Assembly (NCBI GenBank): GCA_012813795.1
Contig: GCA_012813795.1_4087.1
Reading direction: 5' to 3' (one strand)
Length of the DNA: 64,000 bases
Source: a phage
The position numbers and the translations under genes were made by a program. Below, in pieces: positions 18,130 through 64,000 of this stretch. The notes beneath the pieces were generated by a model that saw only the letters and a program-made list of their open reading frames with translations, did no database searches and had not been told where the DNA came from. Numbering within the stretch: the stretch's first letter is position 1; each line of letters begins with the position of its first letter.

Positions 18130-18344
18130 TATTCATCCTCGTACTTCTTAAATGGTGGTACTGTTACATTGAAGTCTTTGCACATTTTAGTGGAACGAAC
18201 TTCAGTGTTGTTGTGGTAATTCTTCTTAAATTCATAAGAAACAAAATTACGAATACCTGGTGTATGAATAATTGCAAGAACAAAGGTACGACCAAAAAGA
18301 CATAACAAATTCCAGAACATATTAATCTCCAAATTAGTAGGCAT
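18129..18344 (-). CDS. hypothetical protein (71 aa)
   Basis: ORF track. Confidence 0.4.
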   Translation of the reverse strand: MPTNLEINMFWNLLCLFGRTFVLAIIHTPGIRNFVSYEFKKNYHNNTEVRSTKMCKDFNVTVPPFKKYEDE

Positions 18345-18688
18345 TAATCAAACGTGATACATCTAGTATAGCGTTAATCTCTTCTAATGTCAAGTCACCA
18401 ATGTCATTTATCATTGAGTACTGAAACAGTGATTCTTCAGTGTAATTGCATTCTGGTACAGCGATAAGGATAGGCTGCTTGGATACGTCCAAAGTTATTT
18501 TAGCCATTGTGCTATATATATCAAATTGATATAATTGATTTTTGGAAGTATATGATATGTATATATTATTTGATTCAGATGGATGTACCAAGGTAAAACC
18601 ATCGTAACATAATAGTTTAATGTTCGGATCGTCAAAATTGCCTGTATAAAGGTTCTTTCGAACATCTTGTATTATACGTACTATTAGA

Positions 18689-18696
<8 letters not shown>
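18334..18696 (-). CDS. EEYFQ-motif paralog family member
   Basis: YTEESLFQYSMINDIGDLTLEEINAIL. Confidence 0.6.
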
Positions 18697-19465
<769 letters not shown>

Positions 19466-19468
19466 ACA

Positions 19469-19601
<133 letters not shown>

Positions 19602-19602
19602 A

Positions 19603-19702
<100 letters not shown>

Positions 19703-19746
19703 ATAGGCACATACGGGTCTGCTTTTAAGCTACTGATTCGGGAATC

Positions 19747-19792
<46 letters not shown>

Positions 19793-19799
19793 CGTTCTT

Positions 19800-20018
<219 letters not shown>

Positions 20019-20027
20019 TAATACCCT

Positions 20028-20429
20028 TTAGTAGTTTAAGTCAGCGGCGTTGAACACACCGAGTGAAGTCTTACCACGTAGTTTAGGGGAAATGACATAT
20101 TTTGTCAATGTCTTTTTACCGTACCAGTACTCGAAATCTTTTTCTTCTACATACGGATTAGGGAAATCCCATTTGCGTTCTTTATGAATTTGCTTGGCCT
20201 GGACTTGAAGCTTTTCAACTTCATCTGGTGGTACAGTATCTACATTATTAAACTGCATGTACATACCTTTTAACCCATCAAGAATTAATTTTTCAGTTTC
20301 TTTAACTAATGTAATCTTTTCGATTCCAGTACTGATATTCATGTAGTCATCTACATAACCATTCCAGATAACAATCTCTGGATTACCTTCGATTCCCTGA
20401 AGCATCTTGATCAAGTCATTCTTTTTCAT
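20028..20429 (-). CDS. hypothetical protein (133 aa)
   Basis: ORF track; shared N-terminal motif with 19800..20015. Confidence 0.55.
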   Translation of the reverse strand: MKKNDLIKMLQGIEGNPEIVIWNGYVDDYMNISTGIEKITLVKETEKLILDGLKGMYMQFNNVDTVPPDEVEKLQVQAKQIHKERKWDFPNPYVEEKDFEYWYGKKTLTKYVISPKLRGKTSLGVFNAADLNY

Positions 20430-20437
20430 TTGAATTC

Positions 20438-22078
<1,641 letters not shown>

Positions 22079-22094
22079 ATCACCAACTTTAATT

Positions 22095-22240
22095 AAAAAA
22101 ATGGATGGTGACGCTTTTAAACGCCGCTGTTAATTCAGCTTTATAACCACCCGTTTTAACTTGCCTTTCGGCTACCTTGACGTGGGGCGTACAGGCTACT
22201 AAAAGCAACTTCTGTAAACATATTTCCACGCCTTACCATT
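22095..22240 (-). ncRNA. structured RNA 2, related to 20811..20885
   Basis: Extended -10 promoter (CTGATATAAT at 22244..22252), no ORF, GCC-GAAA-GGC hairpin, GCTG-AATTAA-CAGC hairpin, closing stem followed by T7. Confidence 0.4.
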
Positions 22241-22263
22241 TTCATTATATCAGTACTTTTATC

Positions 22264-22503
22264 TTATACTTTAGTTAGTACTAAGTTGTTGATGTTGTTT
22301 ACATCTGGACAGACGTCGGTGCGATGCATCAATTCAATATCAAGAATGTATTGTTTGATTTTTGAAATGTCAATGTCTTTTTCTTGCATTACGATGATAC
22401 ATGACTCATTTAAAGTATATGTATCATAAGACCATCCCATTCCATCACCACGTGGAACTTTTTGTGATACATTATAACTATAACTCACAAAATACTTACC
22501 CAT
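22264..22503 (-). CDS. hypothetical protein (79 aa)
   Basis: Start moved to MGKYFVS, downstream of the promoter 22536..22563 start site. Confidence 0.5.
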   Translation of the reverse strand: MGKYFVSYSYNVSQKVPRGDGMGWSYDTYTLNESCIIVMQEKDIDISKIKQYILDIELMHRTDVCPDVNNINNLVLTKV

Positions 22504-22531
22504 TTCAATATACCTTCTGTTGTTAAGATAC

Positions 22532-23385
<854 letters not shown>

Positions 23386-36287: not shown

Positions 36288-36691
36288 AATCTTACCCTTT
36301 TCAATGCTTTAACTTCGTCAGTGCACGGGAACACAACGAATCCAGTTAATGTTAGACCATCAAAATGGTTGAATCCATAATCATGAATCTTAGTTGCAGT
36401 GAATCCTTCAGCTTTCACTTTATCGAATAGATTAAGCATCTGTTCTTCAGATTTAGCCTTTAAGATAATCTTGCGGCGACCGTCCTGTACCCAAGTACTG
36501 AAATCGTTCAGGATCTTTTCATCTTCATCTCTTGGGTTCTCACCAACAGCATTACAACCACGAATTGATGTACCAGCAACTGTAACCGTGGACCAGATAG
36601 AATCAACCGCATGACCCGCCTGAGCAGCAAGCTTCCCAACTGGCATATCTAAGTCTTCACGAATGATTATGTAACATTTACTTACTGTCAT
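36281..36691 (-). CDS. peptidyl-tRNA hydrolase, PTH2 family (136 aa)
   Basis: YIIIREDLDMPVGKLAAQAGHA and C-terminal HDYGFNHFDGLTLTGFVVFP match the PTH2 pattern. Confidence 0.7.
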   Translation of the reverse strand: MTVSKCYIIIREDLDMPVGKLAAQAGHAVDSIWSTVTVAGTSIRGCNAVGENPRDEDEKILNDFSTWVQDGRRKIILKAKSEEQMLNLFDKVKAEGFTATKIHDYGFNHFDGLTLTGFVVFPCTDEVKALKRVRLW

Positions 36692-37103
36692 CTACAATCT
36701 CCTTTTCATATTGCTCAAGTATCGAATAGATCTTATTGGAAATGTCCAATGTTTTAACATAATCACAGTACCTGATACACCCAAAATCATACAAAGTACT
36801 AACCATAAAGAATTCTTCTTCAGAGTACTTCTTTTCATTGAATGTAATGGTATTTGTAATTTTTCCAGATTCTGAATATTTTACATAGATAATACTACCA
36901 TTACTTATGTAATCTAATGTCTCTGAATACTTTTCAATACTAGAACTATGTCTAAATTGAATTCCTACAGATTTATCATACCAAAGAGATTTATTTCCGT
37001 CAGTAAGTATAGCATAATCAATCTTACGTTTATCATTGACACACATACCACAATCGGTAATTTTTAGTTTAGTGATATCAATATTCAACAGATCACTTAT
37101 CAT
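36678..37103 (-). CDS. EEYFQ-motif paralog family member
   Basis: KYSEEEFFMVSTLYDF. Confidence 0.55.
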   Translation of the reverse strand: MISDLLNIDITKLKITDCGMCVNDKRKIDYAILTDGNKSLWYDKSVGIQFRHSSSIEKYSETLDYISNGSIIYVKYSESGKITNTITFNEKKYSEEEFFMVSTLYDFGCIRYCDYVKTLDISNKIYSILEQYEKEIVDDSK

Positions 37104-47866: not shown

Positions 47867-48685
47867 TTAGCACGTCCCTTTGTTGTTCTTCTCTCTGTAC
47901 CAGTTGAAACCCTTAACTGGTGGGTACTTCTCATCTTTAGGTGGCTCCGGCATATCATACACCGTTGCATTCCTAAATTTTAAAATGTAAACTTCCATAA
48001 GACGTATGATAGCATAGTTTAAACATTTCTGTGCTCTTTCTTTCCAAAAATGTTTATATGGTTCTGGACAGTTTAGATAGTCCAGTTTATACATACCCAT
48101 TGCTGCTTGTACAAATCTCTGTGCTGAAAATTTACGTTTGTCAACCTTACTGGCTCTGTACTGATCAGATGTCCAGCTTTGTACCCCAGGTAAATGACAA
48201 AACAAATCAAACTCTACCATAGAACTAAAATATTCATTATGACCGTGTAGTTCACCATAGAACAATGCCTCATTGACAGTCTCATATAATGAAAAATTCA
48301 TATGTATATGTTCATTATCAAAGATGTTCTTTAGTTCTTTGTACGTCTCTGGTACTGGTGGTTCAGGTAACAACTCACCAAATGTCTCAATGCACCAGAT
48401 TTTCCACAATCCTTTTGTGAATTGTACTTCACGTTCTCTATCACTGTCAATATAAAATGTTTTTTCATTAATGAAAACCTTTCGTGCCATATATGCTTTA
48501 AAGATTGCATCGGGATCGATATCATCACGTTTAATGTCATCCCATCCCTTACCAATCCTTGAAATCTCAAATCTACGCATATACATTCTACAAGCTAAAT
48601 CTTTTGTAGTACTGCGACGATACTTTTCATCCTGAACCAATTTAGTACTTTCATGTAGAGATTTCAACATATTTAAAATTCTCAT
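47867..48685 (-). CDS. hypothetical protein (272 aa)
   Basis: ORF track. Confidence 0.6.
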   Translation of the reverse strand: MRILNMLKSLHESTKLVQDEKYRRSTTKDLACRMYMRRFEISRIGKGWDDIKRDDIDPDAIFKAYMARKVFINEKTFYIDSDREREVQFTKGLWKIWCIETFGELLPEPPVPETYKELKNIFDNEHIHMNFSLYETVNEALFYGELHGHNEYFSSMVEFDLFCHLPGVQSWTSDQYRASKVDKRKFSAQRFVQAAMGMYKLDYLNCPEPYKHFWKERAQKCLNYAIIRLMEVYILKFRNATVYDMPEPPKDEKYPPVKGFNWYREKNNKGTC

Positions 48686-49362
48686 CTTAGCACCAGATAC
48701 TTCCCATCTCTACCAACTATATACTGATTACCACTACGTAGTACTGTATAGTTTTCACCTAATATAGAACTAAGTCTTGATGTATCTAATTTGGTTTCAG
48801 TTTTCAGCATAGATTTGATGTATTCCTCAGATGCAAAACCACTACCAGTGCTATAACATAAATCACCATACACGGTTTGTAGTTTTAGGTTATTACCCTC
48901 TTTGAGTACAGTTATACCAGCATAATCCAAAAACTCGCTTAGTGCATCTGGAGTTCCTAATTCTACACGTTGTTGAACTTCATCAAAGTCTACATCAATT
49001 GGATCATTAACACCATAAAGCTGAATTTTCCATCCAGGATTTGGACAAATGTTTTCAATAGTCTTAATTAGAGTTAGTAATTTTTCTGGAAACTCTGCAT
49101 TACGTTCCATTTCAACAAATACTTGATATCTACCATCTAGGTTAGGTGTTTCAGCAGCTTCAGTATCTACCGCAGTGATTGGTGATTTCTCAATGAAAGA
49201 GGACAAATCATATGCAGCATCAAAATTATTCAATACCTGAAACATAACAACGATATTACCATCTTCAATCTTGGGTGTATATTCATCAACACTGATAATA
49301 GGGTAAATCAGATCTTTAAGTACTTCAGGACGTAATCCCTGTTCATTTAATTGTTTAGACAT
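48682..49362 (-). CDS. hypothetical protein (226 aa)
   Basis: ORF track. Confidence 0.6.
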   Translation of the reverse strand: MSKQLNEQGLRPEVLKDLIYPIISVDEYTPKIEDGNIVVMFQVLNNFDAAYDLSSFIEKSPITAVDTEAAETPNLDGRYQVFVEMERNAEFPEKLLTLIKTIENICPNPGWKIQLYGVNDPIDVDFDEVQQRVELGTPDALSEFLDYAGITVLKEGNNLKLQTVYGDLCYSTGSGFASEEYIKSMLKTETKLDTSRLSSILGENYTVLRSGNQYIVGRDGKYLVLR

Positions 49363-49937
49363 TACATTCCTCCTTTTTGTTCATCAGGTGCACCAAATTC
49401 TGCATCTAATTCTTGAACATCCTGCTCATCTTCCATACTCATATCAGGTGTATTTTGATCTAAGTTCATTGGATTACTATTAAATTCAGATGCCATTAGT
49501 TTGTATTCATCAAAGCTTTCTGGATTAATTAGATTTCGAGGTATTTGAAAACGAACTAGTAGTACTGGTACTCTTTCGGTTCTTGGTACATTCACTGATC
49601 CATGTTGAGTTGCTTGTGTTTTCATATCATTACGACTACGAGGCTTCGCAATTGGTCGTATTTCGTAATCAGCTTTAACTTGAACTTTAGTGCCGTGTTT
49701 TTCTAAAACTGTGAATGCTGTTGGATCTGGAAAGTTTTCTCTATAATATTTGAATGTAACAGTACACCAGTACTTAGTAACATTTGGTCCCTCAACTAGT
49801 TCACCTTCAATTACACCAGTATAGGCATATAAATCATTGTCATCAAAATATTTTTCAACCGCCAGAAGAATGTCTAATATTCCAGAATTATCATATAATT
49901 GCTGGATAGCATTGTCTGTTGTATTCATATCTTCCAT
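49362..49937 (-). CDS. hypothetical protein with acidic C-terminal tail (191 aa)
   Basis: Start moved to MEDMNTT (AAGGGA SD); tail MEDEQDVQELDAEFGAPDEQ resembles SSB tails, but no fold evidence. Confidence 0.5.
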   Translation of the reverse strand: MEDMNTTDNAIQQLYDNSGILDILLAVEKYFDDNDLYAYTGVIEGELVEGPNVTKYWCTVTFKYYRENFPDPTAFTVLEKHGTKVQVKADYEIRPIAKPRSRNDMKTQATQHGSVNVPRTERVPVLLVRFQIPRNLINPESFDEYKLMASEFNSNPMNLDQNTPDMSMEDEQDVQELDAEFGAPDEQKGGM

Positions 49938-50020: not shown

Positions 50021-50641
50021 TTATTTTTTCATTAGTTCGTAAATTTTTAGACGAAGTTCGCTCCAATTATTAACATAATCAAAGCCGTTGTTATGCTTGT
50101 ATTCATGGTTATGACACGCACACATCATAACAGCAGGTATATCCAACTCTATAGCCGTTTCTATATTTTTAATATAATCGTCAATCAAAAATTTAACGTC
50201 ATATTGAGCTTTTAATTTCATTAGTGCTGATTTTTTGGATTCATACATTTCAATGATAATGATATCATCAAAAATACCCTCACCAAAGACATTAATGAGA
50301 TTCACATTACGGAGAACTTCTCCGTGTCCGAATGTACCCGATTTAGTCAGTACTACAAATTTATCATATGGGAACTTATCACGTAATTCTTGCATAATTC
50401 CAACCGTGTTATGTTCTACTGGGTCAAGTAGACCAAACTCATAAGAACGATGGTTGAAGTGTTTTAGAATCTCTTGCACTTCAGGTTGAGTAATTCCACC
50501 CAACCACTGACACAAATCATATTTTTCTGGATATGGTGTTTCTGGATGAATATCATAATGTTCTTTAACAAAATTATATAGACCACCAATGTGGTCCAAT
50601 AGCACTTCATCACAATCCCATACTACACAACGTTGTTTCAT
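50021..50641 (-). CDS. HAD-superfamily hydrolase, 5'(3')-deoxyribonucleotidase-like (206 aa)
   Basis: N-terminal DxD motif VVWDCDEVLLD; start moved to the TAATG overlap with the clamp-loader stop. Confidence 0.5.
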   Translation of the reverse strand: MKQRCVVWDCDEVLLDHIGGLYNFVKEHYDIHPETPYPEKYDLCQWLGGITQPEVQEILKHFNHRSYEFGLLDPVEHNTVGIMQELRDKFPYDKFVVLTKSGTFGHGEVLRNVNLINVFGEGIFDDIIIIEMYESKKSALMKLKAQYDVKFLIDDYIKNIETAIELDIPAVMMCACHNHEYKHNNGFDYVNNWSELRLKIYELMKK

Positions 50642-51594
50642 TACATATTTCCTGAACAAATCAAGTCAATTTCACATAGTAATGCACTCAGGTTCATCTC
50701 ACGATCAGAAACTGTTGATTGTTTGACAACTGCATCACGGATTTTAACCTTGATTTTCATTAGTGTGATTTCATCAGTACTGAACATTTCTGCATTACGA
50801 TACAGATACGAGAAAAACGCATCCATTTCGTCATCAGGGATATTTTGAACAATCTGCTCACGCATCTGACGAATGTTTCCCGCCTTTAATGCATCAACGA
50901 TTGCCGTGCGATACCCAGCAGAATTCTCAATACTGTCTTCTAGTTTTACTAGTTTACCATCAACTACTGAACTCTGCAATACGTTTAATGTTTTGCGGAA
51001 GTCAGGGTACGATGCATTGATGTATTGCTGCACTTGATCAATACTTTCTTCTGATGATAAATCTACACCCTCAGCTAACAGTACGTTGATGATACGGGTC
51101 ATAAACTGTTCCATATCATGCTTCTCGATTGTAATTACTTGCACACGAGAAATAATAGGTTTCAAAATTTTATGTGGCTCATTACTGGTTAGAATAAAAC
51201 GAGCATTCTCGTGATAATCTTCCATGACACGCTTCAGGCTACCTTGTGCTTTGTGGTTCATCTGTTCCATTTCTTCCAGAACAAATACACGATAACGTCC
51301 AAAACATGATAGTTTTGCGGCAGCGTCAATCTTATCACGCACAGCATCAATACCCTCATCTGACATGTTTAGAGTTGTTACATCACTTGGGTCCAGGTGA
51401 CCATTAGCTTCAAGTCCATTTAGTAGTACTTTAATCGCTGAAGTTTTTCCTGTACCAGCGGGACCAAAGAATCCAATATGTGGAATATTGCCAGTACAAA
51501 TCCATTCTTCCATCTTTTTACGAAGAGCATCATTTTTGAAAACGTAATCTTCTAGGGTTTGTGGGCGATATTTTTCAGTCCATAGTGTAGTCAT
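50641..51594 (-). CDS. RFC/gp44-like clamp-loader AAA+ ATPase (317 aa)
   Basis: WTEKYRPQTLEDYV, Walker A GPAGTGKTS, Walker B VFVLEEM, sensor ISRVQV. Confidence 0.85.
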   Translation of the reverse strand: MTTLWTEKYRPQTLEDYVFKNDALRKKMEEWICTGNIPHIGFFGPAGTGKTSAIKVLLNGLEANGHLDPSDVTTLNMSDEGIDAVRDKIDAAAKLSCFGRYRVFVLEEMEQMNHKAQGSLKRVMEDYHENARFILTSNEPHKILKPIISRVQVITIEKHDMEQFMTRIINVLLAEGVDLSSEESIDQVQQYINASYPDFRKTLNVLQSSVVDGKLVKLEDSIENSAGYRTAIVDALKAGNIRQMREQIVQNIPDDEMDAFFSYLYRNAEMFSTDEITLMKIKVKIRDAVVKQSTVSDREMNLSALLCEIDLICSGNM

Positions 51595-51937: not shown

Positions 51938-52261
51938 TTAACGTCCAAATGTTTGTACTGAAGTACGTGGGTCTTCATCGGAAACCAAAGATACTGCGGC
52001 TGGGTAATCAACTAAGTTTAATTGAACACCATCAACCTCAATAGTTCTGGACCAGCGACCGTGGTCAATAAGAATCCATTGACCTTCTTTGATATCAGTT
52101 ATATCTTCACCAACTGAATAAACTTTAGCCCAACGACAACGAATACCACGAATTTTACCGTCATCATTTGTTAAAACAATTCCACCAGCAGTTTTTCGTT
52201 CGCCATGTTCTAAATCAGTAACCAGTACTTTTCCCTTACATGCTGTCATAACTTTAGACAT
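51938..52261 (-). CDS. GroES/Cpn10-like co-chaperonin (107 aa)
   Basis: KVLVTDLEHGERKTAGGIVLT and GEDITDIKEGQWILI follow the Cpn10 pattern. Confidence 0.6.
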   Translation of the reverse strand: MSKVMTACKGKVLVTDLEHGERKTAGGIVLTNDDGKIRGIRCRWAKVYSVGEDITDIKEGQWILIDHGRWSRTIEVDGVQLNLVDYPAAVSLVSDEDPRTSVQTFGR

Positions 52262-52670: not shown

Positions 52671-52700
52671 ATTATATCACATGTTTCGTTACCATTTCAG
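52671..52700 (-). promoter_or_regulatory. extended -10 promoter
   Basis: TGATATAAT with a weak -35. Confidence 0.4.
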
Positions 52701-53231
52701 AAATTCGTTCACATCGAGATCATACTTCAATGAGTCAACCATATGCAAACCAATCAGAAACAGACAATATGAGGCTACAGAACTACCACGCCCTAAGCCC
52801 CAGAAGATGTTGTGCTCTTCCATATAATCTACCAACCATATCATACAACGCAATAGCTTTGTCATATTATATTGTTCGTATAAATCAATTTCGTATTCCA
52901 CACGCTGTTTTGCTTCAGGTGTGGAACACTTTTGTAAAAAGAATTCTCTTAGATTGATATTGTCATACATTGGATCATAACGCCATAACTCATGATTACT
53001 ATCATGGTCAATTGTATAATCCAACATACGTTGCTCTAGTCCAAATTTTTTACAGTTATCGTTAAACTTCAAACGCTCTTGTTCATCTATATCTTGTAAT
53101 TGTAAGTACTGAATATCTGAACCACAATTCATAGCATAAACTACAGCATTTAAATTACATTTAACATCACCATTGGGACTTATATATCTGTTTCCTTGAA
53201 CTTTCATTTGTCTTTTTACTATCCTCTTCAT
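52689..53231 (-). CDS. stand-alone protein resembling a DnaE (Pol III alpha) segment (180 aa; start uncertain)
   Basis: FWGLGRGSSVASYCLFLIGLHMVDSLKYDLDVNEFLKW parallels DnaE GPGRGSAAGSLVAY.LGIT..DP..Y.LLFERFLN and ends before the catalytic Asp pair. Confidence 0.5.
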   Translation of the reverse strand: MKRIVKRQMKVQGNRYISPNGDVKCNLNAVVYAMNCGSDIQYLQLQDIDEQERLKFNDNCKKFGLEQRMLDYTIDHDSNHELWRYDPMYDNINLREFFLQKCSTPEAKQRVEYEIDLYEQYNMTKLLRCMIWLVDYMEEHNIFWGLGRGSSVASYCLFLIGLHMVDSLKYDLDVNEFLKW

Positions 53232-53475
53232 CTGATAGATAAGAATTCATATCAAAAATACATGGATCAGCTTCCTCGTATGTATCTTTCTCTTTTCTAC
53301 CTTGTCGTAAAGTCATTTCTTCATAGCACTGATTCAGTACTATCTGCATGTTACCAATGATAGAATCACTCATACCAGCGGCACGAGCGGAACTAATACG
53401 TAAACTTTGATCATTAATCTTTTGTTGGAGTTCTTTATCACTCATACCAGAAGGGTCATAAAATGGATTAAACAT
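53167..53475 (-). CDS. hypothetical protein (102 aa)
   Basis: ORF track; 65-nt overlap with the downstream ORF as drawn. Confidence 0.45.
   Translation of the reverse strand: MFNPFYDPSGMSDKELQQKINDQSLRISSARAAGMSDSIIGNMQIVLNQCYEEMTLRQGRKEKDTYEEADPCIFDMNSYLSDEEDSKKTNESSRKQIYKSQW

Positions 53476-61661: not shown

Positions 61662-64000
<2,339 letters not shown>

Follow-up and report, generated by a model that had tools for sequence, protein, structure and literature searches.

The NTP-binding half of a probable two-gene, Pol III alpha-like minimal nucleotidyltransferase in a Rak2-like jumbo phage

The N-unit gene and its surroundings

The DNA analysed here, referred to throughout as the window, is a stretch of 64,000 nucleotides. 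Over 10 kb, it shares 96% identity with Escherichia phage A4 (ON286972.1, genus Asteriusvirus, 355.5 kb); the identity to 121Q, PBECO4 and other Rak2-like jumbo phages is about 77%. A window position w is converted to A4 coordinates as 326819 minus w. The minus strand of the window holds an open reading frame at 52689..53231, which encodes 180 aa when counted from its first ATG. The original prediction took this frame, at that length and with a 65-nt overlap with the upstream open reading frame, for a stand-alone protein whose C-terminal part follows DnaE, the alpha subunit of Pol III, and breaks off before the catalytic aspartates. The reading frame is real, but the true protein has 172 aa and the overlap is 41 nt. 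We call this protein the N-unit and its proposed partner, described below, the C-unit. The coordinates are collected in Table 1.

Three observations place the start of the N-unit at M9 of the frame, the second ATG, at 53207. PHROG 11127 (annotated as 'DNA polymerase', 171 positions) is matched end to end from residue 9 of the ORF with an E value of 2.4e-86. The homologs are mostly 170-180 aa long, with 172 aa as the commonest length among the 120 matches listed of 130 in a large protein collection. The shorter 172-aa form is also the one annotated in phage A4 (A4_84) and in RaK2 (ORF162). In the alignment, the N-termini of the family start at MKVQGNR. Judging from these comparisons, the eight in-frame codons ahead of M9 are probably not translated as part of the N-unit.

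The start of the N-unit is overlapped by the last 41 nt of the upstream gene. An overlap of the same length is found between ORF161 and ORF162 of RaK2, and the corresponding overlap in PA5oct is 17 nt. The 41-nt overlap could be a means of translational coupling to the N-unit. The upstream gene is unannotated in the A4 record, so that A4_83 and A4_84 are separated by a gap.

The order of the N-unit, a small ORF, a GroES-like gene and, further downstream, a clamp loader is common to RaK2 and PA5oct. Besides the clamp loader, a topoisomerase II is also encoded near the N-unit gene. The GroES/gp31-like co-chaperonin gene (51938..52261, minus strand) lies two genes downstream of the N-unit and matches Pfam Cpn10 and PHROG 931; phage A4 has a second annotated 'co-chaperone GroES' (A4_23, 226162..226461) near its family B polymerase. 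A promoter scan around the N-unit gene performed no better than on shuffled sequence; terminators were scanned as well, and neither result was used. The omics paper on PA5oct makes no mention of the N-unit or C-unit genes.

Table 1. Coordinates of the features under discussion (window positions, except in the last line)
Feature	Position	Strand	Description
N-unit coding sequence	52689..53207	-	172 aa plus stop; start at M9 of the frame as first drawn
Eight in-frame codons 5' of the real start (MKRIVKRQ)	53208..53231	-	Fall within the upstream gene, at its 3' end
Upstream 102-aa gene	53167..53475	-	PHROG 15348 over its full length, E = 2e-48; RaK2 ORF161
DnaE-homologous segment, aa 97-172	52692..52919	-	E. 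coli DnaE ~318-394; by PF07733, hhalign and PDB profile search
GRGSS motif, aa 139-143	52779..52793	-	Counterpart of E. coli DnaE G361-R-G-S364
Clamp-loader gene, gp44/RFC-like	50641..51594	-	Pfam DNA_pol3_delta2, AAA, Gp44_lid; PHROG 168; context only, outside the enzyme
Single-chain minimal Pol III locus (putative)	L013:519-1649	+	

Similarity to DnaE and conservation of the N-unit family

The similarity of the C-terminal part of the N-unit to DnaE was borne out by several kinds of search. ORF residues 100-179 match Pfam PF07733 (DNA_pol3_alpha) at 39.1 bits (E = 8.5e-10, against a gathering cutoff of 23.9 bits), covering profile positions 16-95 of 260 only, and the PA5oct ortholog scores 36.9 bits against the same profile. 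By phmmer against the PDB, ORF residues 104-178 align with residues 318-392 of E. coli DnaE. A 53-member N-unit profile was aligned to E. coli DnaE by hhalign over DnaE residues 319-400, with a probability of 89.8 and an E value of 1.8e-6. When the family profile was searched against PDB sequences, the best 9 matches were all Pol III alpha.

The segment shared with DnaE is the part of the palm ahead of the strand that bears D401 and D403. In E. coli DnaE, residues 361-364 are GRGS and residues 400-406 are PDFDVDF. The GRGSS of the N-unit aligns with the former (G363-S364) and corresponds to the G-S motif that binds the nucleotide triphosphate in the Pol-beta-like fold. The N-unit ends at about E. 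coli DnaE 394, some 7 residues short of D401 and D403, and in agreement with the original prediction it contains none of the catalytic Asp triad (D401, D403 and D555 in E. coli). The N-terminal ~95 aa are family-specific, with no DnaE match in sequence searches by Pfam and hhalign. Pfam matches to PHP (PF02811), HHH_6 or an OB domain were found neither in the N-unit nor in the C-unit.

An AlphaFold model of the isolated N-unit has a pLDDT of 77, and a Foldseek search with this model found nothing. The lowest-confidence stretch of the model, residues 138-153 with a pLDDT below 50, is also the most conserved stretch of the family. Taken at face value, the model suggests that residues 138-153 may need the sheet of a partner in order to fold.

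The conservation of the family was examined in an alignment of 53 members, down to 30% identity, with positions numbered from M9. Sixteen positions are invariant (W75, R102, E106, L119, G137, G139-R-G-S-S-V144, S146, L149, L151, H155 and S159), and GRGSS is kept in 53 of the 53 aligned members. Homologs at 30-40% identity occur in phages of Pseudomonas, Agrobacterium, Sinorhizobium and Xanthomonas. Compared with A4, the N-unit gene carries only 6 substitutions, 5 of them synonymous and 1 non-synonymous, which give a dN/dS of 0.043. Compared with RaK2, the pN is 0.106 while the pS is saturated at 0.76. These values point to strong purifying selection on the N-unit family across Rak2-like jumbo phages.

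The original prediction had considered a gene fragment, which in its plainest form would be the decaying remnant of a host dnaE gene once captured by the phage. That the N-unit corresponds to no more than a short internal stretch of DnaE and stops ahead of the catalytic residues is in line with such an origin. However, 130 homologs keep a length of about 172 aa down to 30-40% identity, the dN/dS is about 0.04 with pN far below pS, the active-site motif is invariant, and the order of the genes and their overlap have been kept. These observations refute the fragment reading, and the probability that we leave to a decaying remnant is negligible.

The partner gene and the proposed enzyme

The original remark that no continuation of the polymerase can be seen nearby holds within the window. 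A phmmer search with E. coli DnaE against the 262 window ORFs returned only ORF 52689..53231, and an HMM of the C-unit found no C-unit among the same 262 ORFs, the best E value being 0.061. A search of the window for the DxDxD pattern picked out ORF 48685..49380 (minus strand, 232 aa), which carries PIDVDFDE. It is not the C-unit, because it is the ortholog of A4_91, an annotated structural protein, and has no match to the C-unit profile. Two further ORFs on the minus strand, 18337..18696 and ~18916..19284 (the latter A4 307535..307903), were matched by phmmer to DnaE 200-265 in the PHP region with E values of 0.04-0.1, and A4 36366..37007 was matched to DnaE 386-459 with an E value of about 9. 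These three weak matches, with short alignments, no motifs and no family support, were treated as chance. The two minus-strand ORFs, of about 120 aa each, are paralogs of one another and share ...NLYTGNFDD.NIKLLCYDGFTLVHPSESNNIY... In A4, the 'putative nucleotidyltransferase' A4_502 was rejected as a partner; it belongs to the RlaP/RNA-repair Pol-beta family (Pfam PF10127).

A search for other DnaE pieces in the rest of the genome, carried out on A4, found the missing half. With E. coli DnaE as a single sequence, only the N-unit was recovered from the A4 genome; the C-unit was found by a DxDxD pattern search of the whole A4 genome. The C-unit is A4_42 (A4 242008..242646, 212 aa), which is identical in sequence to P0121 and matches PHROG 11778 ('DNA polymerase') with an E value of 3e-106. 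The N-terminus of A4_42 reads RKARTDIDIDFKD, and the C-unit starts about 15 residues before DIDID. The gene sits among those for a DnaQ-like exonuclease, helicases and a primase. Given the 96% identity to A4, the C-unit gene of the present genome is expected at a distance of about 20 kb from position 64000, outside the window.

The invariant positions of the C-unit, as seen in 48 homologs, include D16, D18, D20, G77-Y-x-K80-x-D82, R149-P150, H190 and Y194. In order, its motifs are the counterparts of DnaE PDFDVDF (D401/D403), KFDFLG (K553/D555), FRPGP (638-642) and FNKSH (756-760). The third aspartate stands in KVD (D82, within GYQKVD), and the two finger motifs are IRPGK and FKKPHAYAY. The DnaE region 642-756, which holds YQEQ and R709/R710, has shrunk to about 35 aa. 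The catalytic triad lacking in the N-unit is thus located in a separate protein, at D16, D18 and D82, and the window protein is therefore a subunit and not a complete polymerase.

The sequence links between the C-unit and DnaE are individually weak. The Pfam finger match has an E value of 0.19 and the hhalign comparison with DnaE one of 0.011. The C-unit profile gave only 2 sequence matches in the PDB, both to M. tuberculosis DnaE1 chains with a weak E value of 0.25, each consisting of four collinear segments, and a single-sequence PDB search with the C-unit gave chance matches only. The AlphaFold model of A4_42 has a pLDDT of 93.9 and a pTM of 0.82, and its best 11 Foldseek matches in the PDB are all Pol III alpha (including 4iqj, 2hpi, 3e0d, 7pu7, 2hnh and 5fkw), followed by noise, with probabilities up to 1.00, E values from 1e-3 and a TM score of about 0.5 on the query. 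Structure prediction, put forward originally as a check on the window protein, linked the C-unit to Pol III alpha and did not do so for the N-unit. The assignment of the C-unit to the C-family is supported by the collinear motifs together with the match of the predicted fold.

The two genes go together in number. Phage A4 has exactly one copy of each. In the phage collection, at E<=1e-5, 95 records contain the N-unit and 96 contain the C-unit, in a comparison of totals and genus counts rather than of the record lists themselves. By genus, the N-unit and C-unit counts are 34 and 34 for Escherichia, 11 and 11 for Pseudomonas, 10 and 11 for Klebsiella, 8 and 8 for Salmonella, 8 and 8 for Erwinia, 4 and 4 for Xanthomonas, and 4 and 4 for Yersinia. 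The distance between the two genes in eight phage genomes ranges from 14.7 kb in Stenotrophomonas phage CM1 to 224 kb in Phosso, with 31 kb in 121Q, 31.6 kb in A4, 33.7 kb in RaK2, 43.8 kb in PA5oct, 116 kb in SCTP-2 and 182 kb in Atu_ph07.

When the C-unit alignment was used for an exhaustive profile search, the matches were mostly proteins of about 190-215 aa, but they also included P0309 (375 aa, matched at residues 189-371) and P0380 (336 aa, matched at residues 108-318). In these two proteins, as in P0390 and P0391 (which like P0309 have 375-376 aa), the N-unit and the C-unit form one chain. The window protein is 36% identical to P0309 residues 10-180 (E = 1e-20), and A4_42 is 34% identical to residues 190-374 (E = 1e-27). 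In P0391, PHROG 11127 covers residues 8-180 and PHROG 11778 residues 190-375, and the match to PHROG 405, a full-length phage DnaE family, spans the junction. The PF07733 match of the fusions likewise spans the junction, extending over profile positions 12-121 at 59.6 bits. The window protein ends ...DVNEFLKW and the C-unit begins ...RKARTDIDIDFKD, and the junction in the fusions reads ...KYKLNIKEFIKDNKEGIYNIADFDIDTKNREE... The fusions come from metagenomic and Logan assemblies, and P0391 lies on a 5.85-kb contig beside phage-type genes. P0309, P0390 and P0391 are mutually 78-81% identical and are separate metagenomic cluster entries, for which reason we regard the fusion as a real gene and not an assembly artefact. 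By sequence comparison, the fusions are direct evidence that both Rak2-type proteins are likely to be halves of one catalytic module.

These results bear on the proposal of a decoy, in which the 172-aa protein alone would bind a replisome component of the host or the phage, or regulate it. A stand-alone protein of this kind, with an N-terminal ~95 aa that is family-specific and has no DnaE match, and with a model in isolation of only moderate confidence (pLDDT 77), could be imagined in that role. The DnaE regions that bind epsilon (PHP), beta and tau are known, however, and they are absent from the N-unit, with no Pfam match to any of them. The strictly invariant residues are GRGSS and its helix, for which a decoy has no need; with GRGSS as its most conserved part, the protein is a true homolog of DnaE rather than a mimic. 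Moreover, the Asp-bearing partner is present in a near-equal number of phage records, and some genomes encode the two as one chain. We consider a decoy very unlikely. It is the third possibility raised originally, a subunit of a split enzyme, that is supported by the partner in A4, the near-equal record counts and the fusions, which are joined exactly at the break.

We propose that the N-unit is the NTP-binding half of a two-gene minimal C-family (Pol III alpha-like) nucleotidyltransferase, with auxiliary DNA polymerase as its likeliest role, and we regard this as probable. The N-unit would give the helical front of a Pol-beta-like palm, in which the GRGSS loop would hold the triphosphate of the incoming nucleotide. 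The C-unit would give the beta-sheet with the three catalytic carboxylates (D16, D18 and D82) for two metal ions, and also the pared-down fingers (IRPGK and FKKPHAYAY). The break would separate the helix after the G-S loop from the fold's first catalytic strand. Since such a break lies inside the catalytic fold, the active site would need both chains and neither would be active alone. No Hint or intein match was found by Pfam in either unit, and there is no extra sequence at the C-terminus of the N-unit or the N-terminus of the C-unit. With no intein, the two units must therefore associate non-covalently. Both their physical assembly and the DNA-polymerase activity are what we infer from these comparisons.

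Phage A4 encodes a family B polymerase, A4_18, with DNA_pol_B_exo1 and DNA_pol_B domains. The reduced domain set of the two units, together with the presence of this complete family B polymerase with its exonuclease domain, favours an auxiliary role. The enzyme would then act beside the T4-type family B polymerase in primer extension, on one strand, or in repair. As the thumb, most of the fingers, PHP, the clamp-binding region and OB are missing, templated and processive DNA synthesis is not assured.

For the same reasons, the two proteins might form one Pol-beta-fold nucleotidyltransferase that is not a templated DNA polymerase. Its chemistry might be untemplated nucleotide addition, modification of DNA or RNA ends, or the making of a nucleotide signal or of primers. 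Pol-beta-fold enzymes carry out many non-polymerase chemistries. The thumb and most of the fingers are absent, the dNTP-contacting RR and YQEQ are not recognisable, and the phage already possesses a family B polymerase that is complete and has an exonuclease domain, all of which count for this alternative. On the other hand, all of the closest relatives, whether in sequence or in fold, are C-family replicative polymerases, and both genes lie among replication genes. In addition, Iyer et al. (PMC7824862) place the retained RPG and FxKSHxxAY in the DNA/template-binding part of DnaE. An enzyme of the non-polymerase kind seems unlikely to us, and the auxiliary DNA polymerase remains our preferred reading.

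We suggest more tentatively that the two proteins, or the fusions of about 375 aa, may be the smallest working C-family polymerase known, with a core of about 385 aa, or may perform a non-canonical nucleotidyl transfer that would be new for this fold; this is a possibility to which we give distinctly less credence than to the auxiliary role itself. As a minimal polymerase, it would be a second, specialised enzyme at the fork, for example one that extends primers and then hands them off to the family B polymerase, in a manner similar to that of Firmicutes, where DnaE hands extended primers to PolC. If either a polymerase or a novel transfer is true, the enzyme would establish what is minimally required for catalysis in the bacterial replicase family.

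Relation to known systems, and minor observations on the genome

A split minimal Pol III alpha in group 2.2 jumbo phages was described by Iyer, Anantharaman, Krishnan, Burroughs and Aravind (2021, Viruses 13:63; PMC7824862). In the passages of that paper concerned with these phages, an NTP-binding N-terminal unit and a C-terminal unit that binds Mg2+ and template are assigned to distant genes of Rak2-like phages with a family B polymerase, these phages are stated to have no further Pol III domains, an auxiliary polymerase role is suggested and minimal forms are proposed to be ancestral. Because that interpretation is the same as ours, the split minimal Pol III is already known. The present case is the same in kind, with a Rak2-like genome, a T4-type family B polymerase and a distant C-unit (in A4). 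Orthologs of the window gene are RaK2 ORF162 and CBB_328, the latter noted as a 'truncated' 172-aa DnaE in the account of phage CBB (PMC5259590). Several GenBank records label one or both genes DNA polymerase III alpha, the nearest one as 'DNA polymerase III alpha subunit'.

The original prediction had allowed that the protein might turn out to be a conserved domain of an already characterised phage family. The family is indeed conserved and has been described in silico, but a literature search for experimental follow-up on the N-unit or the C-unit found none. What is added here is the start codon, the conserved 41-nt overlap, the structural confirmation of both halves, the record counts and the single-chain fusions; the last are not mentioned in the passages of PMC7824862 that deal with the split enzyme.

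With bacterial DnaE and PolC, the phage proteins share the Pol-beta-like palm, including GRGS in the N-unit and the DxD pair, the third Asp (KxD), RPG and FxKSHxxAY in the C-unit. Whereas bacterial DnaE has 1160 aa in one chain, the phage enzyme would have about 385 aa in two. It is without the PHP, thumb, beta-binding, HhH, OB and tau-binding regions, its fingers are much reduced, and the cut in its chain separates the NTP-binding helix from the first catalytic strand. Cyanobacterial DnaE is also a C-family polymerase that comes from two distant genes. However, DnaE-N and DnaE-C of cyanobacteria carry split-intein pieces and are joined by trans-splicing into one full-length chain, whereas the phage N-unit ends EFLKW with no intein, and both the split site and the protein sizes differ.

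Among phage families, the N-unit matches the same palm segment in PHROG 13169 (463 aa), PHROG 11165 (782 aa) and PHROG 405 (1190 aa). In contrast with the N-unit, which has its own 171-aa family (PHROG 11127), these are much larger and keep further DnaE domains. Comparison of these families indicates that phages carry DnaE genes of several kinds, truncated or divided.

Nearly all bacterial chromosomes are replicated by C-family polymerases, which have no relationship to the replicases of eukaryotes and archaea and serve as targets of antibiotics. An enzyme of about 385 residues that is divided inside its active site would be a ready-made system for finding the parts needed in catalysis. It would show why a phage with a T4-type polymerase keeps a second one, and it would bear on whether minimal forms preceded the large cellular enzymes, that is, whether they are ancestral or reduced. 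The single-chain fusions could be the easiest form to express. The gene is already a published feature of Rak2-like phages, and its remaining value lies in the biochemistry of the enzyme rather than in discovery.

Some features of the window and of A4 were noted apart from the split enzyme. Five tRNA genes are clustered on the minus strand at window 19131..23260, with Thr-TGT, Asn-GTT, Met-CAT, Ser-ACT and Ser-TGA as their assignments. The Ser tRNA with anticodon ACT, as called by ARAGORN, has an A at position 34, which is unusual for bacterial systems. In phage A4, seven tandem paralogs of about 370-450 aa, annotated as 'putative DNA condensation protein', occupy 345902..354619, and a gene for a kelch-like protein follows this array at the end of the A4 genome.
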